Shown here: positions 33,697 through 48,200 of the stretch, in pieces
How positions within the stretch are numbered: position 1 is the stretch's first letter
Layout: every line of letters begins with the position of its first letter
Source: Tubiluchus corallicola
Lineage: Eukaryota; Animalia; Priapulida
DNA: 64,000 nucleotides
Direction: 5' to 3'
Assembly (NCBI GenBank): GCA_030141605.1
Contig: JAQGDQ010000506.1
Span: 1-64,000 of the forward strand
Program-made: the position numbers and the translations under genes
Notes under the pieces: model-generated
Databases searched by the model: none
Told to the model about the DNA's origin: nothing
What the model saw: only the letters and a program-made list of their open reading frames with translations

Positions 33697-35597
33697 TCAG
33701 TGTTTGTCGCAACGCCAAGGTTGGTTCTGGATGTGGATTCTCTCCTTGCAATGTGATTCTAACAACTGCCAACCTAAAACGGAATTTGTATACATGTACA
33801 CCTGCAGGTTGTGTTTTTAAATTGTTTACAGGTGTTTGCTATCGATAAGGAAGTGATAAACAAGTTACGAATATATAAACACAGATTTTAGCGACTTTAA
33901 GACATGCTAGCTCTTTAATAATAAAAAATCTATTGCTTAATTAAGAGATGAACATGAAATTTAAATTGATTTAATTAAAAATTTTACATAGTAAATTTCG
34001 ACTTCTTAAAATGAATTGAATGTGTGACGTCATTTAAAGAGGAACTCGAAATATTGTATTGTAAAATTTTAAATGAGTTCATTTAAATTTTTTATCCACG
34101 TCTTAAGCCGTTATTTTTATTATTATGAGCACTGCAATCCCTGTGATTTTCCCAAGAGTGCCATATCCCATGGGAAAGTCATGGAAATCCCTTCCTACCG
34201 GTTTCTGCTATTCTTGGCAAGCAACTTTTTATTTGTTTCTAAAAGCCAAAGTTCTCCTACCTTTTTCATGGTCATTGTGGTACTTCTGCGTCCAAGCATC
34301 TAGTAGTAAGTTACTGTATCGTTTTTCTTCAAAATACTTCAAGTACTTGTGAGATGTAGGACTGGGAAAGATTCTTTGGAAACTTCCTCTCCTGGAAAAT
34401 TCGTCTTCAGCTTCTACAAGTTCACGAACATCTGCTGGTGTTAGCTCATCTAGGATGTGAGTTTGTATCTCCTGGAAAAATCAAATTCAAGTGCATAACA
34501 AACTGCCAATCGCAAATCTTCGAGGTAAGAAAAGATTAGGTGATATTAACCATCAGCCAGTCAGATTTGGTGTATTAACCATCAGCCAATCAAATGTAGT
34601 TGTTTTAGGCATCAGGCAGTCAGATTTGGTGTATTAACCATCAGCCAATCAGATGTAGTTGTTTTAGGCATATTCATGTCACATAAGAAAATATTGTTGG
34701 CCCAAGTCATTGACTGTGGTTTTGACACCTCACCATTGATTTGACCTTTGACCTTATATAAGCTGCTATCTAAATACATACTTAGGTCAAACTCGACTCC
34801 TGGACTGAACTCAGTGTGAAAAGACCGCATTAATCAATTAGTTAATCCAGGTAGTTTAGTTGACATACCTCTTCAGATGCAGCCGTCGTGAAATATAACC
34901 GTTTTGCTTTCTCTTCTGCCGAAAGTCCACAGTCCAGAAGTGACTTTGGCAGCATCGGACCTGCTTCTGGGAGACATGAGGAATTGCTAAATAAAAAAGT
35001 TGTTAAATAACAAAGAACTCTAGCTACTTACTGCATAGAAAATACTTTGGCCTTACAAGCAGGCAAACAAGCACCCAAACGCAACCCATACTCGATCCAC
35101 AAATATCCGATTTCAGTCAGTAAGTTATATTGTAAAGTTGTAAAATTCTTAAAATTTACGTTTCCTACAGGTAAGCATTAAAACTTGAGTGCTTACAGAA
35201 TATGTACCGTCTTGGCTACATTTGTAACTTTGTTAGAAACTTTATAGAAGATTTAACATTAATCTTTCTTCCTTATTAATCTGTTTATTCACAAAGACTG
35301 CTGCCATGATAAGTCTAGAGAATGTAACGCCTCGTGGCTTGCCCGCTAAAAACAGTGAGAGGAAACCTTAGTGAGCACAAACATAAAAATATAAACCATA
35401 AATAACAACACGTCACAGAATATAAGTAAAATTTCTTGCTCCCCAGAAAACAGAAGTCTTTTAAAGTCTTTTACCTTTGGCGAGAACGCAGAGGTTGCGA
35501 TTTTTTGTGGGTTGACCTTACAGGTATTCGAAATCCTGCCATATTGAAAGCGTCCTGAACAATTTGTCCGTTACTCACGTCATCCGCAGGATAGAAA
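33697..35597 (-). CDS. TTLL4: TTLL4-like tubulin glutamylase, 3' exons only (possibly a truncated copy)
   Basis: Exons 35475-35597 (GQIVQDAFNMAGFRIP), 34869-34986 (LSAEEKAKRLYF), 34261-34471 (ILDELTPADVRELVEAEDEFSRRGSFQRIFPSPTSHKYLKYFEEKRYSNLLLDAWTQKY) and 33697-33773 (GWQLLESHCKERIH..*); splice phases are consistent and the peptides match the region after the TTL core of TTLL4. Confidence 0.8.
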
Positions 35598-36529: not shown

Positions 36530-36693
36530 TACACGTAATTAACAATGACCATATAGAAACTAGGTTAATAGTATTACTAATACACCACAAGTAATTGTCG
36601 AATCTGTCCAGTACATAATCAATCATAAATTCACAATAGAGATGGGCGGGGCAGATCTATCAGCCTGGGGCGTCGTAAAGTGTTGATACGCCT

Positions 36694-36872
36694 CTGATTA
36701 TTGGGGACATTGAGAAGACCTTTTTGAATGTTGGTCTGCAAGTTGCTGATAGGGTCGTTACTCGTTTCCTCCGGGTAAAAAGTCTGACTTCGTTACAGCA
36801 CCCAATAATAGATGAGTCAAACTTAGCGATTCACCGGAGTTCCGTTTAGTGTTGTTACTAGCCGTTTTAATT
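36694..36872 (+). mobile_element. BEL/Pao LTR-retrotransposon RT fragment
   Basis: LIIGDIEKTFLNVGLQVADRVVTRFLRVK...NLAIHR / VPFSVVTS resembles the BEL/Pao pattern DIEKAFLQ..L...DR..TRFLW...RVPFG. Confidence 0.7.
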
Positions 36873-36975: not shown

Positions 36976-37377
36976 CTGTGGTCACCTGGCATTCACTGCC
37001 CAGCCATGGCATGGTTTCATCACACATCTCTCTGTGGTCACCTGGCATTCACTGCCCAGCTATGGCGTGCTTTCACCACACATCTCACTGTGGTCACCTG
37101 GCATTCACTGCCCAGCCATGGCGTGCTTTTGCCACACATCTCACTGTGGTCACCTGGCATTCACTGCCTGGCCATGGCGTGGTTTCACTACAATCTCACT
37201 GTGGCCACCCGGCATTCACTGCCCAGCCATGGCGTGCTTTCACCACACATCTCACTGTGGTCACTTGGCATTCACTGCCCAGCCATGGCGTGCTTTTGCC
37301 ACGCACCTCACTGTGGTCACCTGGCATTCATTGCCCAGCCATGGCCTGGTTTCACCACACATCTCACTGTGGTCACC
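36976..37377. repeat. 56-bp minisatellite, ~7 copies, abutting the left palindrome arm
   Basis: Unit ctgtggtcacctggcattcactgcccagccatggcgtgctttcaccacacatctca. Confidence 0.95.
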
Positions 37378-37900
37378 AGTGTGAAAGCGCATGAAAGCGT
37401 GTGAAAGTGCGTGAAAGTGTGTGAAACGAGGTAAAAAGCGCCTCAAACGAAGAAAAAGGGAGAAGTGGAGTTCCCGCCGAGGACTAATTAGTGCTAATTG
37501 GCGCTAATTGGGGAGCCCCTGCCATCCCTCCGCCGCATGCAAACGTCCGTCCCGGGGGTCGGGGACCCCCCCTGCAACCCACCCCTCCGTCGCGTGGAAT
37601 CGTCCACTGCAGGCAATGAGGGAAATCTTTTTCCCGCCACTCGCGCAGTGCCGGCCCTTTTCCGCGACCACTTCTCTCTCTCTCGGGTGCCCTCCCTTTT
37701 CCGCGACCACTTCTCTCGCGGGTTTAGATGTGTGTGTGTGTGTGTGTGTGTGCGTGTGTGTGTGCTTGTGGAGATTTATTTCAAACGCCAAAGTTCGATA
37801 AATGCATTTTCACAAATCTTTTTTATTGATGGATTACAAAAATTTTTTTTACATTTTTTATGCAAAATACATACGTGCTAAAACTAGATTATTATTATTA

Positions 37901-38629
37901 TTATGGTGACATGATAGTTCTACATTTTACGTTTTTTTCGCAAATTACACAAATTATGCAAATTACAGTAAAATACACTAATGACGACGAGCGAGTACAT
38001 GGATTGTCGTCGTCGTCGTCGATGTGATACAGACAAACGTTATTGTTGTTAAAAACGAATTCGTTAAATTTGCGGAAAACGCGAGAGAAATCCTCGACCT
38101 TTGTCCCGCCCATCATTATTATGCTTTCGGTGTGAAAAATGTTCAGAGTAATTTGCTCGCATTTGCAAGTTAGTTTGGGAAATAGTTCCACTTCGTAAAA
38201 CACTTCTCTAAAAGAATGCGTCGAAGGACGAACGAGTTCTTCGTACAGTGCACCCAGTTTCAATCTGCAGTGAATTTTGGCTCTGGCGGTGATGGTGCGA
38301 ATTGCGATCCCGTCGGCGGGCGTCAGTCCGAGACCTTTCGAGAGTTCTTCGATCGCATTGCGTAGTACTTTTTCCTCCGAAAAACCGTTGGCCACCACGG
38401 AGCCGGAGGCAAAAATCATCAGTGTCCCGCCCAGTCGCTTTAGCAGAAGCATTTGCGGTTTTCTTTCGTAGCGTCTTCCGCCCGTTCTCCGCCGGAGTTC
38501 GTTCAGATCGAAGCGCTGCGAGAACGAAGCCGTGGCGACGATGTTGACCGTTTGGACTGACACGTTAGAACGTAGTTGGCAATCGTTTCGGACGCCCGAA
38601 CCGCTCTGCCTCGTCCGTTGCTCTGCCAA
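37901..38629 (-). CDS. Divergent TBP-fold protein, left-arm copy (no ATG; G>E in the IFxxG motif)
   Basis: VNIVATA..FDL, TLMIFASGSVVANG, YEVELFPKL and TLNIFHTESIIMMG match the two TBP repeats. Confidence 0.7.
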   Translation of the reverse strand: MAEQRTRQSGSGVRNDCQLRSNVSVQTVNIVATASFSQRFDLNELRRRTGGRRYERKPQMLLLKRLGGTLMIFASGSVVANGFSEEKVLRNAIEELSKGLGLTPADGIAIRTITARAKIHCRLKLGALYEELVRPSTHSFREVFYEVELFPKLTCKCEQITLNIFHTESIIMMGGTKVEDFSRVFRKFNEFVFNNNNVCLYHIDDDDDNPCTRSSSLVYFTVICIICVICEKNVKCRTIMSP

Positions 38630-38925
38630 CGTATGGCGGGCGGCGGGTGCTCACTTTCCAGATCCTCTACGCGTATGACCACGCGATTTTTGGGGAGATG
38701 TTTTTTGACGAAATCGTACATCTCTGCTCCCTTGACGTAGGTGATCCTGCCTCTGGTGGTCTGTCGTAGAATGTTTTCCAATTCTGCGTACTCGATCATT
38801 CCCTCCTCCCACGAGATGCCGTGTATGTGTCTGATTAGGTAGTTGTAGGTGGATCGCTTGTGCTGGGGAACGCGATTCCAAACAAGTTTTGGTATTTGAA
38901 ATGCTAGAAAATTAATAATGAAAAT
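38503..38925 (-). pseudogene. 5'-truncated DEDD/RNase H-fold exonuclease-like ORF of the Polinton/large-DNA-virus type
   Basis: Open frame FQIPKLVWNRVPQHKRSTYNYLIRHIHGISWEEGMIEYAELENILRQ...ITYVKGAEMYDFVKKHL...VIRVEDL; the HGxxWxxG.I.Y..L..IL and YVKG.E pattern is recalled from Polinton-associated exonuclease-like proteins; N-terminus missing. Confidence 0.5.
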
Positions 38926-38953
38926 TTAATCAGCTGATACACCTCGTGTGAGG

Positions 38954-39760
38954 ATGGAAGCGATGTTGGAAAATCGTGTGTCAGCGGATCACCTACGTCA
39001 AGGGAGCAGAGATGTACGATTTCGTCAAAAAACATCTCCCCAAAAATCGCGTGGTCATACGCGTAGAGGATCTGGAAAGCGACCACCCGCCGCCCGCCAT
39101 ACGTTGGCAGAGCAACGGACGAGGCAGAGCGGTTCGGGCGTCCGAAACGATTGCCAACTATGTTCTAACGTGTCAGTCCAAACGGTCAACATCGTCGCCA
39201 CGGCTTCGTTCTCGCAGCGCTTCGATCTGAACGAACTCCGGCGGAGAACGGGCGGAAGACGCTACGAAAGAAAACCGCAAATGCTTCTGCTAAAGCGACT
39301 GGGCGGGACGCTGATGATTTTTGCCTCCGGCTCCGTGGTGGCCAACGGTTTTTCGGAGGAAAAAGTACTACGCAATGCGATCGAAGAACTCTCGAAAGGT
39401 CTCGGACTGACGCCCGCCGACGGGATCGCAATTCGCACCATCACCGCCAGAGCCAAAATTCGCTGCAGATTGAAACTGGGTGCACTGTACGAAGAACTCG
39501 TTCGTCCTTCGACGCATTCTTTTAGAGAAGTGTTTTACGAAGTGGAACTATTTCCCAAACTAACTTGCAAATGCGAGCAAATTACTCTGAACATTTTTCA
39601 CACCGGAAGCATAATAATGATGGGCGGGACAAAGGTCGAGGATTTCTCTCGCGTTTTCCGCAAATTTAACGAATTCGTTTTTAACAACAATAACGTTTGT
39701 CTGTATCACATCGACGACGACGACGACAATCCATGTACTCGCTCGTCGTCATTAGTGTAG
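38954..39760 (+). CDS. Divergent TBP-fold protein, right-arm copy (open frame; core begins near GTG 39170)
   Basis: In-frame ATG at 38954; core VNIVATASFSQRFDLNEL..TLMIFASGSVVANG..YEVELFPKL..TLNIFHTGSIIMMG; intronless; AATAAA at 39905. Confidence 0.8.
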   Translation: MEAMLENRVSADHLRQGSRDVRFRQKTSPQKSRGHTRRGSGKRPPAARHTLAEQRTRQSGSGVRNDCQLCSNVSVQTVNIVATASFSQRFDLNELRRRTGGRRYERKPQMLLLKRLGGTLMIFASGSVVANGFSEEKVLRNAIEELSKGLGLTPADGIAIRTITARAKIRCRLKLGALYEELVRPSTHSFREVFYEVELFPKLTCKCEQITLNIFHTGSIIMMGGTKVEDFSRVFRKFNEFVFNNNNVCLYHIDDDDDNPCTRSSSLV

Positions 39761-39962
39761 TTTTACTGTAATTTGCATAATTTGTGTAATTTGCGAAAAA
39801 AACGTAAAATGTAGAACTATCATGTCACCATAATAATAATAATCTAGTTTTAGCACGTATGTATTTTGCATAAAAAATGTAAAAAAAATTTTTTGTAATC
39901 CATCAATAAAAAAGATTTGTGAAAATGCATTTATCGAACTTTGGCGTTTGAAATAAATCTCC

Positions 39963-40006
<44 letters not shown>

Positions 40007-41960
40007 CTAAACCCGCGAGAGAAGTGGTCGCGGAAAAGGGAGGGCACCCGAGAGAGAGAAGTGGTCGCGGAAAAGGGCCGGCACTGCGCGAGTGGGGGGG
40101 GGAAGATTTCCCTCATTGCCTGCAATGGACGATTCCACGCGACGGAGGGGTGGGTTGCAGGGGGGGTCCCCGACCCCCGGGACGGACGTTTGCATGCGGC
40201 GGAGGGGTGGCAGGGGCTCCCCAATTAGCGCCAATTAGCACTAATTAGTCCTCGGCGGGAACTCCACTTCTCCCTTTTTCTTCGTTTGAGGCGCTTTTTA
40301 CCACGTTTCACACACTTTCACACACTTTCGTGCACTTTCACACACTTTCACGTGCTTTCACACACTTTCACATGCTTTCGCGCGGTTTTGCGCGGTTTAA
40401 AATGGGGTGTCAAAAAAGAAGCCATCCAGGGGTCAATGAACTTTGGTCACGTGACCTAGAGTTCAAGGTCATTCGATCCAAATGAAGCCATGCGGGTGGG
40501 AAAAACTGCAAAATTTTTACCTCGTTTCACACGCCTTTTCTTCGTTTTTCTTTGTTTTTCGCGCTTTTTCGTCGATTTCGGTCACGTGCGCACTTTCACA
40601 CGGGTTTTCACACTTTTTTAGGGGTTTTCGCGGATTTTCGCACTTTTTTAGGGGTGTTTTTCCCCACCCCCCCGGGCAGCCAAAGGGGGGGGGGGTGGGG
40701 AAATCGGCCAGAGGCAAAACATCTATACTACTTGGGTGAAATGCAGAAGCTTGTTATGGCTTGCTATTTTGAGACATAGACACATATATAAATAATACTT
40801 ACAAATTATATTTTTGAGAAAACAGTCATTTTCTACTGTTCTAAGTCTTTAGTACTGTGACGCATATCTAAAGTTGTCTTAGTTTCACCAGCTTTGAAAA
40901 CTGATCAAACTAAAAAAAGCCTCTTATTTGTTAAACTTAGCAGAGCAATTTTTCTGGTAAAAATGTTTTCTTGGAAAAATTTTTCCTGTTAAACGATTGT
41001 CAACCGAAGCTGTCCAAATGTTCTTGTGTGCCGCATTCATTGTGTCCAAATGTCCATTGCATTAAAATGTCCTTCTGTCCAAATGTCCTAAGTGTCAAAA
41101 TGTCCCATGTGTCCAAATATCCAAATGCTCTTGTGTCGAAATGTATTATGTTTAAATTTTAAACATGTCTAAATCGCCTTGTGTCCACATGACTTATGTG
41201 ACCAAATGTCTTGTGTCGAAAAGACACAGGTGTCGAAATAGCCTTGTGTCCAACGTCCCTTGTCTCCAAGTGACCTATGTGTCCCAATGTATTGGGGCGA
41301 ATTGTCCTGTGACGAAATATCTGGTTTGAAATGCTTAAATATATACAGTTCGGTATGGTGTTACCGACGATAGTTAGCTGTTTAGTGGTGCTTCATAAGT
41401 TACAAGACCTTTGCTATCTTTACATTCTGCATATATCTTGTACTGTGCAAGATGTTAAATACAGAATCAAAGCCATTTCAGTCACCTCCACATTCGGTAT
41501 GTTGAGGGTCAAGCTGAGATGCGCCCCAATTCTAGTACAAAAATGATATTTTGTCAAACAAAAGCTTGGCTGTAATGTCTAAGAAGATCCTTCATCACTG
41601 GAAAATTTAGAAAAAAATGTAAATCATACAAGCTAGACGGAGACAAACAACAAAAACAAAACAAAAAAGTAACTTAAAACTCACGTTGAACTTACATTTG
41701 ACTCTTTTTTGTTGGACTCGTTTTTTGTATTTTCTTGCCAATGTGATGCTACTAAACATAGCTTTTGGCAAGCAACTTAATTTAAATCCTGGTAGCCATT
41801 ATATAAGCTACATCAGTTCTTATATCAAAGCTGTTTGTGCTAAATATTTTTCGTTTCCACCATGTCAACTATTTACTTCATTCGCTTCTTTCAGTTTGCT
41901 TCTCAACCTTTGAGGTTCGTTAAGTCGCTATTCTAGCTCAAAGAAATACATTCTGTTTAG

Positions 41961-44479
41961 GCTTCACAGGTGATTAGCCATCCTGATTATAGATCAGGCA
42001 CATCGGAGTATGACATTGCTCTCTTAAGACTTGAGTATCCCGTTGATTTGAAAGACTCTAGAGTTGATACAGTAAAGTTACCCACTGGAGATTATCTTTA
42101 TGAGTGGCAAGATGCTCGTGTAACGGGATTTGGAAAAATGCAAAGTAAGTAGAAATAATATAGTAAAATATAAGCACATTTCTAAAAACAATTACGAAGT
42201 GGTAATTAATAAGTCTTAGCATGAGATCTTCTTAAATCTGTAATATCGAAACAATTTTATTTGTAATTTGTAATTTATTATCACTTCAGCATGTATTTTA
42301 CATTACAATTTGCATTATTATCTTTAGCTATTATGCCCTATAACTAGAAAATGAAATATAGTTACAATAATTGTAACAGAACTACATTCGTAAACTATAG
42401 CATAATAATATAATATAATATACTATAATATAGTGTAATGTGATGTGATGTGATGTGATGTGATGTGATGTGATGTGATGTGATGTGATGTAATGTAATG
42501 TAATGTAATGTAATGTAATGTAATGTAATGTAATGTAATGTAATGTAATATAATATAATATAACATAATATAATATAATATAATATAATATAATATAATA
42601 TAATATAATATAATATAATATAATATAATATAATATAATATAATATAATATAATATAATATAATATAATATAATATAATATAATATAATATAATATAATA
42701 TAATATAATATAATAACAACGAAAGACCAACGAAAGATTGGATAGCTACCATTTAGGTTAGTATTAATCTAGTATTAATTTATGTACTGTGTACAGTACT
42801 TATACTGTTAGTCATAAAGCTATTGATAATACAAAGCAAGAGAAGGATAAGAGTAGGCAATTAAATAGCGAAAAATACGTCCGGGCTCAATAGATTGTAG
42901 TCATAATATACTAACTTAATTAATGACGTCAAAATTAATTTTACCCCATTACAACCACAATAGAATTTGCCAAAACCTTGCAGTATGTTGAAGGATATAC
43001 TGTCAGTGCTCAGTTTTTTGATGTTATTCTGGCCTTTTGATAACGTAATAAAAGGTCCGCTAACCGAACGCTTTTATTTTATTTTTTTAAGGTGGGAATG
43101 TAGCAGATGTTCTTCAGACAGTTGTTGTGAAAGTAGTGCCCAATGGTGAGCATTCAATGTGGATCTTAGCTGGAAACTTGGTAGACAAGACAGGATCATG
43201 CTCTGTTAGTAAACATTCTTTATATCATTGTCATTTATTCAGAAAGTTTTTTTTCCATTAAATCAAAATCATTTTTGCTGTCTCAGCTTCATAAATAAGT
43301 TGCACTGTCCCAGCCAGCACACAATATTGTCATCATATGATCACGACCTCGAAAAAATATGTTCCGAAAATATTTTTACCATGTTAATACAGAATTGCAT
43401 ATTTTTGTTGTCGTCCCATATTAGTAGAACATTGGGTCCCGTAACGGGCGTTTAACCATACCCAACTCGCGATTTTTTCGAAATTTCACCAAACAGCTAG
43501 TGGCGCCTAATGGGACTCTCGAAAAGAGATATATAGCTCTTTAGATAGACGAAGAACAGGGCTACACGATGATATGGTCTATATGTTAGTGCAGGTCCAC
43601 CAAAAGGAGTAGCGACGAGTTAATTAGATGTTCTATTTTTGGCAATTTTCGCTTGGAAAACTGCTGACGCAAAGCCATTGTTTTGACGTCATCCATTATA
43701 CTCTGCTTATAACTTTAATTCAGTAAAAGCTGCTGCTGGCTTTGCGTTGTAAATGAGGACTATGTAGGATGTTCGCGCATTTTTGATTATAAGTTTATTT
43801 ATAAGCAAATTTTTTTGCGGGGTCTTTGCTAGTAGAATATAATTTCAGAAAATATTGCTACAACATTGGTACAATATTGTCATGCCCCCTGAGTTAACCC
43901 TAATTACTGAATAATTGTATTGTTTTGTGTAGATTTTGGTATCCAACTTTATAATTTTTTGTTTTGTTTTCATTTCTTTTCGGTTAATTTGTATCATTTA
44001 TACTGTTTTTATTTGTATTTTTCTCATTTCTTTTTGTTTTTGTTATGTGCAGCATCACCGTCAATTTTTAATATGACTAATCTATTTATAAGAAAGGGCA
44101 GGAGACTAGATGACCCTATGGTCCTTCCCAGCCCTGCTCCATGATTATAATTATTTAATATTTAAAAAAACTTTTGATGTTAAACTAATTGGAGAAAGTA
44201 AATGTTCTATGTCTATGTCTATGTCTATAAGTGTAATCGGCTGTTATAATTGGTATCATATTTTTACAATCATGTAACAAAACGTTTTTTCTTTCAGGGT
44301 GATTCAGGTGGCCCATTGGTTGCAGAAGCAACAGGAGAACTCATAGGGATAGCTTCCTGGGTAACGAGCTGTTATGAGGGATCTGACCCAGGCGGGTACA
44401 CTCGTGTGACGTTCTTCCTGGATTGGATCTTAGATATTATGTATAAATATGGGATAATATGGGGTGAAATAGATAATAA
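41961..44479 (+). CDS. S1-family serine protease domain 1 (His57 exon not found)
   Basis: Exons 41961-42144 (HPDY..YDIALLRL..VTGFG), 43092-43204 (LQTVVVKVV..KTGSCS) and 44298-44479 (GDSGGPLV..GIASW..PGGYTRV..WI); unspliced stop at 44522. Confidence 0.8.
42400..42714. repeat. Pentanucleotide microsatellite (GTGAT/GTAAT/ATAAT)n
   Basis: Seen directly. Confidence 0.95.
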
Positions 44480-44811
44480 GTATGAATTTGGGATGGTATT
44501 TGGTAATATGGTCAACAGATAATTACTGGGAAAGGAAAGTAACTTTTCTCAGCAAGCAAGGAACGCCCGACACTGAAGTAGAAATCTTTGGAAAAAAATC
44601 ACAAAAATCAGCAATTATTATTTATGCTTGTCGGGAAATTTTTGAATTCGGTGTAGCTCCTTATATGCAAGAATTGCTTTGTTTGTATTGTTTGAGATTT
44701 AATCAGGCAATGATACCGAAAAGCATTAATAGATCTATGTTAAAATAGCACAGTAAAACTGATACTGAACTAATTTATTAATCTTAGTCAAATAAGCGTT
44801 TATAATTTTAA

Positions 44812-45297: not shown

Positions 45298-48200
45298 GAG
45301 CAGCTCAAGATATTTGTCAGCATTGCGGTGTCTTCGTTTCAGCTCTAGGGTGATCTATGGACTGACTGAAAAATAAATTCTCACTAATTAATAAGTTATT
45401 GTGTTGCGTGTCAGTTATTTTAAGCTTCATACACGTATGTATTGGTGAAAGGTAGAAGTGCTTGATGGAAAATAAATAAAGCAACGAGCAATCTGCTATA
45501 TAATAATGTTGTTGTACTTTGATGTATAAGTAAACATTACAAAAAGTGACTGAAATACAGGTTTTTGAAATACAGGTTTCTTGCCACGAACATCATCAAC
45601 ACCACCAATACCAACACCACCAAAACCACCACCACCAACACCACCACCACCACCACCGCCACCACCACCACCACCACCACCACCATACTTAAGAGCAGCC
45701 GGAGGTCCGGAAAAATCGTTGGAGGAAATAATGTACGGCCAGGAGAGATTCCTTATCAGGTATTACAATTATTTGAATTCGTGAGTGTAATGAAAACAGA
45801 GTTACGTATAATTGTATCAGATCAATGGCTCTGCTTGGCTTGTTCCATCTAGATTGGAATTCAGACGAGATCTGGTATTTTGTGTCCTGAAAGCACACCA
45901 GGTTCAAATCTTAATTTCGTCCGCCATTAGCAGGGTTTTTCATTTACAACATAGGTCTGCTGTAAGGTTCTTACACATAGCTAAACTAGATCTTGCTGTA
46001 GTATAGTCTGTGGGAAGGGCTTCCTACCTATCACCCCTCCTTTCATAATATACTATAACCTATCCATACATAACATGATCTTGGAAAGTACATGACACAA
46101 ATATCCAGGAGAGTACAGTGTAACTGCTGAATCTGAAAGCAGCCAAAAATGCTTTAACTTTTAACTTTAACTTTACTTTACGAAAATGGTTAGAATCCTA
46201 ATCTTGGTTGTAAGAGTCTCTGATAATGACCTGTTCTAATTTATCTAAACAGAGTAAAAAGTGAATAAAAATAGAAAACATAATCATAATCTTTTCCTCC
46301 ATTTCATATAAGATTTTGTTGTTGGAATGTTCGAAATATATGTATGTCATGGTCAACATGGAAAACCATAATGCCTAAATAAACCCCCGTAAAACGTAAC
46401 ATCAAGCCTTAGACACGCTGGTTTTTCAAGTGAGCCCTTCGACACCTCTCTAAAGACATATTAATTATACCTGTGTCGTTGAATTTTTGGTTCATATGCC
46501 TTGCTGCCCTCTGGAAAATTGTAGGACAACAACCGCCCACGTATGTTGCACAACCCTTTTATTGTGAATAAAATATGAGGCTACAGGTTAGTCAGATTTG
46601 TGGATGAGTTGGGAGGTAAAGAGTTGCACCCCCACCGTACAAATCTACTAGCTCCCAACACCTGCATTCTACTGGGTTTGAAATTAAGTCTTTCATTATC
46701 AACATGAATTTCTTCACTCGGTCGTCAGTTTATGCCATTAAGTTCATTCACTAAATCTGAACCTCTGCGTATGAGCTTGAGTGCTTAAACATGGAGCAAC
46801 TTCAAGCATGATTAAATGATATTCACAGATGTTCAAACACTGAACGTTTTGCCAACAGGTGGCGCTTGTCGTCCACGATAGTTTCCGATGTGGAGGATCT
46901 TTGATTAGCAAAGAGTGGGTAATGACAGCTGCACATTGCATGCCAAGTTATTTCAGTCGGTGAGTATTTGGGCGGCTTTTCAAGAAGGTTTTCCTAATTA
47001 GACTTTCAAAATTCAATTATATGCTAATTCGGAATGTGAAGCAACGATGGCTATTCTCTTGCAGCACACATGCGCATTTACGTTTTGCTTGCACGTGCTT
47101 GTAAACGTGCAAACCTTAATAACATGCTACGTTTCACGTGACGTGATCCTTCCGTGTCATTCTAAATAAGTGCCTTATTGTGTACAGTCTAGAAAATAGT
47201 TAATATAGTAATTAAAATACTGTATTTATTTCACTTTGATTCTACTGAAGTATCGTGACGTGCATCTGTAATTACAAACATGAAACAGACGCTATTTTAA
47301 TTGAAAATGCAGAAGGCCCCGCAAAAAAATTTGTGTATAAAATACACATATAATCAAAAATACGCAAGCATCCTACATAGTCCTCATTTATATAGCAAAG
47401 TCAGTAGCAGCAGCTTTTACTGAATTAAAGCTATAAGTTTATAAACAGAGTATAATGGATGACGTCACAACAATGGCTTTGCCTCAGCAGTTTTCCAAGC
47501 GAAAATTGCCGAAAATAGAACATGTAATTAACTCGTCGATACTCCTTTCGGTGGACGTGTCCTAAAATATAGCCTACACCATCTTGTAGCCCTGTTCTTG
47601 CTCTTTCTAAAGAGCCCCATATCTCTTTCCGAAAGTCCCACCAGGCGCCGCTAGAACGTTTTTCTGCATGCTGTTTGGTCAAAATTTCGAAAAAATCGCG
47701 ACGTGGGTCCGGGAAAACGCCCGTTACTGGACGTGTGGCCCTCTCGGGAATTCTAAATATGCCTATGACACCCACCGCTGAACGGGCTATTCATCCATGA
47801 CCAGCACCACCCATGGCCCGTTCCCGTTCTTCAGATCTCAGGCGTATATACGATGCAGAAGACTGCAGCATTTCAATTAAAATCTTGCCTACATTCTTGT
47901 TTACAATTTACAGATGCATCTGACAACGTCACGATTAATTTAGTTATATTTTCTATTTATTTAAGTATAACTATTTTATGAACTAGTTAAGCTGGAGGTA
48001 GATTTGAATACGAAAGTACAAAAAAGAAAGCAAATTGAAGTTATAAAAATAAATCTAACCGAATTTGACTTTTTGTCACAGAGATTATATGAAAATCTAT
48101 CTTGGAGATACTAAATTGATGCGATACAGAAAAGAGAGAAAAGTAAGTAACTCTTTGCTTTGTTATTCTCTCAATAACGATAATGACGGTAGTGATCATG

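Follow-up and report, generated by a model that had tools for sequence, protein, structure and literature searches.

Results

A GC-rich island with two TBP genes

The DNA analyzed here, referred to as the window, is a 64,000-nucleotide stretch from the priapulid Tubiluchus corallicola (assembly GCA_030141605.1, contig JAQGDQ010000506.1, positions 1 to 64,000 of the forward strand), within which an island at 37379-40732 carries two copies of a gene for a TATA-binding protein (TBP) and one end of a probable Maverick/Polinton element. The island has a GC content of 48% and a CpG observed-to-expected ratio of 1.34, compared to 33-35% and 0.66-0.72 in the flanks, in agreement with a first-pass annotation that had described a GC-rich island in AT-rich DNA and read it as a Maverick encoding its own TBP. 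The two outward-facing frames of that annotation, each with two TBP repeats, are borne out, as both match Pfam family PF00352 in two stretches each, with E values of 1.5e-21 (38930-39760, + strand) and 7.1e-19 (37901-38650, - strand) and scores of 76.5 and 67.9 bits against a curated cut-off of 22.9. An AlphaFold model of the right copy (mean pLDDT 91) forms a saddle fold across the whole core and matches solved TBPs, among them yeast TBP (1tbp_A; E value 4e-11, root mean square deviation 2.1, TM score 0.85), so the structural comparison that the annotation had proposed also favors a TBP. Identity to human TBP chains is 21-23%.

The two copies are not equally preserved. Of the motifs attributed to both frames, one, IFHTG, is found in the right copy only; in the left copy, the invariant glycine just past that position is altered and an in-frame stop lies upstream of the core. 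Six differences separate the arms in the 775 bp of shared coding part, and five of them change the TBP-frame protein, as would be expected of TBP copies in decay.

Neither copy has an intron in the core, whose first Met is residue 40. In the right frame, Met codons occur at 38954 and 38963, both supplied by a foreign piece in the middle of the island (Table 1), and next at 39281, inside the fold. The open 268-codon frame at 38954-39760 (+) that begins with these ATGs and has a basic N-terminal extension is probably a chance product of rearrangement. Where an N-terminal TBP extension would be overprinted on the neighboring exonuclease-like gene, the left arm has one stop in 106 codons, and synonymous shuffles give at most one stop with a probability of 0.10-0.12. 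The closest relative of the window TBP (P0001, 60% identity) is also called from a Met inside the first lobe; its sub-branch may start TBP via splicing or at a non-AUG codon, or the contig call may be partial. Just before the TBP start in several of the Maverick loci described below (L003:5977, L021:1491, L022:94, L024:1566, and L026:1721) are pyrimidine-rich stretches ending in AG, which look like splice acceptors.

An exonuclease-like neighbor

The exonuclease-like open reading frame (ORF) that the first-pass annotation saw overlapping the TBP frame (38503-38925, - strand) belongs to an exonuclease-fold family. A profile of nine exonuclease-like ORFs from the Maverick loci ranks 38506-38925 (-) first of all six-frame ORFs in the window (E value 4.9e-5). 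Searches by sequence gave nothing further: the fragment has no word-index homolog and no Pfam family, the family profile has no match among PDB sequences, and innexin lookalikes of the fragment in Atlas, with scores below 0.9, were rejected as noise. The fold is therefore assigned from the predicted model of a relative, that of locus L021, which matches DEDD/DnaQ exonucleases with Z scores of 11.7 to 10. In four loci (L021:2078-3034, L024:2161-3129, L026:2341-3330, and L022), two tandem exonuclease-fold genes lie directly 3' of TBP and have a conserved Cys/His tail, which is absent from the window fragment.

One terminus and a probable fold-back duplication

The hexamer ACTACT occurs 13 times in the window, and alone it carries no weight as evidence. 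We regard the occurrence at 40727-40732, where the annotation had placed the end of the island, as a real terminus because summed contig depth in run X2 falls at 40732 from hundreds or thousands to 7.5 and because one contig each in X1 and X2, which are from the same sample, has 114 unrelated letters followed by a match beginning exactly at 40733. According to the accessible text of PMC8097293, (AGT)2//(ACT)2 is the commonest end motif of vertebrate Mavericks. As loose contig ends occur ahead of 40611 in X2 and X3, the true terminal repeat may span merely ~120 bp, at about 40611-40732. Within this region, 30 bp off the terminus, a perfect 15-bp G/C inverted pair (40659-40703) could form a hairpin near a replication origin.

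The arms constitute an inverted duplication of 1.37 kb that is 97.3% alike; their alignment has 19 gap columns and 18 substitutions, of which 14 are transitions. The right arm contains subterminal repeats with units of 37 bp and 10 bp. The left arm stops 369 bp short at its outer end, where a 56-bp minisatellite adjoins it, and the single (ACT)2 end has no second terminus opposite it, the left end being lost. The earlier statement that TBP is duplicated in both inverted arms thus stands for the arms themselves, with the qualifications that the left copy is decayed and that only one terminus is present. An intact element with these arms as its terminal inverted repeats is not supported, and the arms are probably no such repeats: contigs of X1, X2, and X3 all depart from the window sequence at 38880, and contigs of the second study (X3) continue across 38986 into the exonuclease-like gene. 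Together with the loose contig ends that border the middle piece (Table 1), these departures point to a usual family layout of exonuclease-like gene, TBP, subterminal repeats, and terminus, with a doubling that appears peculiar to this copy and resembles a local fold-back within a defective element. The middle piece comes from another sequence of high depth, probably one in a different part of this element family.

Searches of the window found no gene for a polymerase, integrase, ATPase, or capsid, and ORFs of the Maverick loci match only its TBP and exonuclease-like frames. A 6-bp target duplication is not discernible, as the six bases to the right of the terminus nowhere precede AGT in the window and the left end is missing. 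The window copy is a derived, nonautonomous fragment and not an autonomous Maverick.

The element belongs to a repeated family, present at high depth in two studies. At least half of its words occur in four of the six listed runs, with no RNA data set among the listed holders (which is uninformative on expression), and one 753-bp contig of X3 spans the TBP gene with three differences at a depth of 536, compared to 106 for a flank contig, values that we read only as "repeated" and not as copy number. Among the contigs listed, none covers the whole stretch or crosses the middle junctions, and the tables contain no long linked sequence of the family. In X5, which carries the same species label, the close element is absent; a contig of 2447 bp that matches the TBP gene in short stretches represents a more distant family member.

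Relatives of the window TBP

A HMMER scan with the window TBP returned 122 matches, the best of which are P0001 (60% identity) and P0002 (35%), both on short contigs. In a 58-row tree, the window TBP falls in a 27-row group of compact TBPs (support 99/95) that includes 10 TBPs from Maverick loci and is separate from 12 cellular eukaryote-like and 9 archaeal-like rows; the group labels are ours, P0005 being the only named row. The grouping recurs in a 30-row tree (13 of 30 rows, support 98/88), and with this set an approximately unbiased (AU) test argues against nesting among eight cellular eukaryote-like TBPs (p=0.001). The phylogeny that the annotation had asked for therefore sets the protein apart from cellular eukaryote-like and archaeal-like rows, in trees that contain no animal TBP or TRF2 row.

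Scans of viral contigs with the window TBP, P0142, P0111, and P0002 returned no relative, and a search with the terminal 20-mer gave no match. An alignment of one TBP sub-branch (A2, 20 sequences) found only two viral contigs, L036 and L037, which are giant-virus-like, encode canonical-type TBPs, and have no Maverick marker. In Atlas, the TBP matched generic TBP clusters, a result that was uninformative on range.

TBP genes in Maverick loci

Applied to metagenomes, the A2 alignment yielded 35 loci, some of them near-duplicates and most on short contigs. A Maverick core gene is found in 25 of the 35 and some Maverick-associated marker in 31 (ATPase in 23, phospholipase A2 [PLA2] in 19, integrase in 11, exonuclease-like gene in 7, pPolB in 4, and capsid-like gene in 2). 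Locus L001 has the order pPolB, PLA2, TBP, ATPase, zinc finger, rve-chromo integrase, putative minor capsid, and capsid-like gene. Its pPolB, PLA2, TBP, and rve matches pass the Pfam cut-offs, and those of the ATPase and capsid are weak (E values of 0.003 and 0.007). An AGTAGT near the start of L001 was rejected as a terminus, as it lies inside the polymerase frame. Since TBP and exonuclease-like genes occur in the same loci, both genes of the window fragment have counterparts side by side in Mavericks. Genes with KilA-N and DUF3627 domains are also found in TBP-carrying loci (L007:218-1216 and L031:4459-5433).

The TBPs of these loci are bare cores of 161-179 amino acids. All 21 locus TBP genes compared are open, pN is below pS in 210 of 210 pairs, and dN/dS is 0.10-0.50 in the 30 unsaturated pairs, from which it follows that the related Maverick-locus TBP genes are under purifying selection. 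A Pfam scan of 31 locus ORFs found no match to TFIIB.

A TBP with an altered N-lobe

The Phe at L5.1 in both lobes, the C-lobe stirrup Phe, the N-lobe Asn, and the TFIIB-binding glutamates are kept in the window TBP and in 20-21 of 21 locus TBPs, the first four of these positions in all 21; the L5.1 and glutamate positions are as defined in the available text of PMC7221094. The first N-lobe Phe is gone. When rows are aligned by eye on the conserved Pro, not one of the 37 clade rows has Phe at this position, whereas 30 have Lys or Arg, and an automatic column count gives an aromatic residue in 4 of 38 clade rows versus 21 of 21 cellular ones. The N-lobe Arg and the C-lobe Asn are replaced in the clade as well. 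Canonical cellular TBPs have four intercalating Phe residues and paired Asn residues, a pattern from which the clade departs through loss of the first N-lobe Phe and replacement of the C-lobe Asn. Judged by these residues, the clade TBP appears to keep its TFIIB interface while losing one TATA-intercalating Phe.

ATAAAC upstream of Maverick genes

Motifs were counted in the loci after removal of the near-duplicates L004, L006, L008, L023, and L025. The top 6-mer upstream of 92 starts is ATAAAC, seen 59 times where 8 are expected. In sense orientation and no more than 100 nt upstream of the ATG, it precedes 63 of 65 genes for PLA2, ATPase, integrase, capsid, exonuclease-like, and small-ORF products, compared to only 1 of 23 TBP genes and 0 of 2 pPolB genes. 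Of 69 sites, 50 are located 33-57 nt upstream, 64 have T or C just before the word, and 68 have A or G just after it. Over 111.6 kb, there are 158 sense and 17 antisense occurrences. The canonical TATAWAW is found in 10 of 23 TBP genes versus 14 of 65 other genes. On the giant-virus-like contigs L036 and L037, sense and antisense counts of ATAAAC are 10/11 and 8/2, in 20 kb each.

The distribution appears to fit a promoter better than a 3' signal because ATAAAC is absent or scarce at several kinds of gene end, occurring at 0 of 4 pPolB, 0 of 3 putative minor capsid, and 3 of 13 small-ORF ends. The N-lobe of TBP reads the downstream half of the TATA box, which is where the ATAAAC word carries its C. 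Host TBP makes poor use of TATAAAC, a point on which a literature search returned nothing; one PDB title among the structure matches concerns the C(-25) variant. In our reading, the N-lobe change and the ATAAAC word would match each other, and the data suggest that ATAAAC may be a late promoter read by the element's own TBP.

Surroundings of the element

The minisatellite at the left border, which has a contig depth below that of the element, probably lies outside the element proper (Table 1). By eye, its unit contains a word like the 10-bp subterminal repeat of the element, in the orientation opposite to that of the adjoining arm, which may bear on how the left end disappeared. Farther to the left are a short repeat at 36612-36696, with very high contig depth and many differing flanks, which is likely a small nonautonomous element; three exon-like ORFs at 34229-35027 (-) without a Pfam match, which we take to resemble tubulin glutamylase; and a long tandem array with a period of 43 bp, from 26660 to about 30900. 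To the right, exons of a trypsin-family protease (Pfam PF00089) lie at 41961-42149 and 44250-44519 (+), and near 45496-45762 an additional proline-rich exon, at whose end stands an IVGG motif, points to another protease gene.

Table 1. Features of the island and its left border, in window coordinates
Feature	Position	Strand	Remarks
56-bp minisatellite, 7.2 copies	36976..37377	+	at expected left-terminus position; contig depth below element's
Left arm	37379..38747	-	inverted duplicate of right arm, outer end truncated
TBP frame, left copy, decayed	37901..38650	-	stop upstream of core, invariant-glycine change
DEDD/DnaQ-fold exonuclease-like gene, 3' part	38503..38880 (ORF to 38925)	-	overlaps TBP frame; 5' side cut at 38880
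Foreign middle piece	38886..38989	.	loose contig ends at 38886 and 38989, high contig depth; X3 loose end at 38986
Right arm	38986..40363	+	exonuclease-like 3' part, TBP gene, AATAAA at 39905 and 39952, CA microsatellite, subterminal repeats
TBP core, right copy	39182..39700	+	frame open 38930-39760; Pfam, predicted structure
Terminal region, sole survivor	40364..40732	.	(ACT)2 end motif at 40727-40732

Discussion

The end motif at a precise insertion edge, the relatives of its TBP in Maverick loci, and the exonuclease-like neighbor shared with those loci make it likely that the island is Maverick-derived and bears a Maverick-clade TBP. In this respect, the identification of a Polinton-class element with a general transcription factor as cargo is supported. 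We further consider it reasonably likely, with less assurance, that the window holds a defective, rearranged Maverick end fragment whose compact TBP acts in intact elements as the switch for ATAAAC-marked late genes. Host TBP would transcribe the polymerase and TBP genes early; the element TBP would then bind the ATAAAC boxes and recruit host TFIIB and Pol II, and this recruitment would turn on packaging, capsid, and integrase genes late. The family in the window would operate like the related Mavericks. In the window copy alone, a template switch (fold-back), the most likely origin of the doubled TBP, would have duplicated the end region; the middle would then have taken up a further piece of the family, the left end would have disappeared, and decay presumably set in at both TBP copies.

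Several observations weigh against this scheme. No ATG stands at the start of the TBP core in either copy or in the contig type most frequent in the second study; the earlier description of intronless ORFs is borne out for the core. The nearest relatives, P0001 and P0002, have no genomic context, and the window TBP is no closer to the TBPs of Maverick loci (19-25% identity) than to TBPs of cells (20-28%); given the long branches in the trees, long-branch attraction is a possible cause of the grouping. The motif counts are drawn from related loci and are hence not independent. ATAAAC is also found near 61 of 90 gene 3' ends, in loci where genes are tightly packed, and for 20 of 63 genes its TAA is the stop codon of the gene upstream. 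The window element itself has no ATAAAC site. Of the gene types that carry the word, the fragment keeps only the cut exonuclease-like gene, and the promoter model rests on related loci, as the window copy cannot probe its own family. The proposal that the TBP redirects Pol II to element promoters thus draws indirect support from the relatives, through selection, ATAAAC, and the residues.

The alternative that survives best, though we think it unlikely, keeps the Maverick origin and has the TBP modulate host transcription or serve as a decoy in it, for instance via TFIIB, with ATAAAC as a host-read word or a 3'-end signal. Such a role would suit a protein in which both TFIIB glutamates are kept while the first N-lobe Phe, the N-lobe Arg, and the C-lobe Asn are changed, and ATAAAC fits the Forkhead consensus and lies near many gene ends. 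It sits poorly with the retention of the L5.1 Phe pair, the C-lobe stirrup Phe, and the N-lobe Asn in every locus TBP, with the avoidance of the TBP gene itself by ATAAAC, and with the association of the word with downstream starts (63/65) rather than upstream ends (0/4, 0/3, and 3/13).

A second alternative, somewhat less likely again, concerns the doubling only and attributes it to the head-to-head joining of two separate copies or to a chimeric assembly within a high-copy family. The family is indeed at high depth, no listed contig crosses the stretch or its middle junctions, and two young copies would resemble each other equally. The arms, however, with only 6 differences in 775 bp, have private changes, mostly transitions (14/18), that fit an aged duplicate.

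Less probable still is a source in another, non-Maverick DNA virus or element that shares the TBP and exonuclease-like genes. The fragment has no core gene in cis, neither a second terminus nor a target duplication is seen, identity to the locus TBPs is low, and its GC content of 48% exceeds the 29-47% of the 35 loci. Against such a source, the (ACT)2 motif lies exactly at the insertion edge, relatives of the TBP and exonuclease-like genes adjoin in Maverick loci, and the giant-virus-like L036 and L037, which show no Maverick marker, have TBPs of canonical type. That the ORF is a host TBP or TRF gene recently retrocopied or captured, a refuting case named in the first-pass annotation, is highly improbable given 21-23% identity to human TBP, the AU result (p=0.001), and an N-lobe L5.1 Phe where TBPL1 has Trp (accessible text of PMC7221094), even though the core is without an intron and the trees are without animal TBP or TRF2 sequences.

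More broadly, we offer tentatively, as a proposal slightly more apt to fail than to hold, that a wide Maverick lineage, animal elements included, runs its early-to-late switch via a single 165-amino-acid TBP whose rewired N-lobe recognizes boxes of the TATAAAC type, poorly served by host TBP, and which engages host TFIIB. If true, this would be a minimal orthogonal promoter-recognition system and would point to viral replication in stages by elements that have long been regarded as transposons; at stake are the timing of Maverick capsid genes and the virus phase of animal Mavericks. It would also provide a naturally occurring TBP of altered specificity in which, in contrast to the giant-virus TBPs reported to date, the interface with host TFIIB is kept. 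A dedicated TBP and a uniform word offer a small, direct test with one protein, one hexamer, and one reporter, and an informative binding contrast would be a locus TBP (e.g., L001:4707-5207) versus human TBP on TATAAACA versus TATAAAAG. The strength of the case lies with the relatives and not with the window copy, which is a damaged witness to a GC-rich branch of the TBP clade and to its recent spread in a genome with intron-bearing trypsin genes.

Comparison with known systems

The fragment has in common with Mavericks, Polintons, and adintoviruses the (ACT)2 end motif, as given in the accessible portions of PMC8097293, and the loci of its relatives share with Mavericks pPolB, rve integrase, packaging ATPase, a capsid-like gene, and a parvovirus-type PLA2. 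The available text of PMC8502044 presents the last as a mark of Alpha-class virion modules. Unlike autonomous Mavericks, the window copy is a fragment without core genes.

The first-pass annotation did not count TBP as a standard Maverick gene, and in the portions of the literature accessible to us it is absent from the core genes named for vertebrate Mavericks and from the accessory genes in section 3.2 of PMC8502044. That view needs one amendment, as a TBP-like gene is labeled in the legend of Fig. 5, on MELD-virus, in the section of the same paper on non-animal data sets (Starrett et al., PMC8502044; bioRxiv 10.1101/697771). A TBP-like gene in a Polinton-class genome has thus been labeled in print. 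In the available text of that paper, TBP appears as an abbreviation only, with no analysis of family, selection, residues, or promoters, and the term is absent from one supplement. A literature search on Mavericks or Polintons with TBP or promoters, with subscription journals mostly outside its coverage, returned this one relevant work. TBP and TATA do not occur in the main text of PMC11071296, PMC11071308, 10.64898/2026.10.13.758929, PMC11131425, or 10.1101/2023.08.22.554363, and TATA is not mentioned in the accessible part of PMC8097293. With one published label and viral TBPs known, a TBP in a Polinton-class genome is not wholly new.

Viral TBPs are established in large dsDNA viruses, where they have been proposed to control the virus's own genes, and they share with the TBPs described here the two-lobed saddle and the L5.1 Phe (available text of PMC7221094). 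In the same text, they are described as diverged at the TFIIB-binding positions, and several of the viruses encode their own TFIIB; the Maverick-clade TBPs differ in keeping both TFIIB glutamates. ORF24 of beta- and gammaherpesviruses is a TBP mimic that directs host Pol II to late promoters as one of six viral factors, with an N-terminal domain that binds the Pol II C-terminal domain (CTD), according to the accessible text of PMC7498053. If our model holds, the likeness would extend to function, with a virus-encoded TBP fold again sending host Pol II to late promoters. The bare cores of the locus TBPs have no CTD-binding N-terminal domain of the ORF24 type and would use host TFIIB instead. 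Compared to the viral TBPs known so far, the TBP of these Mavericks appears distinct in being a bare core, in residing in a small integrating element, and in keeping what its residues indicate to be the host TFIIB interface.

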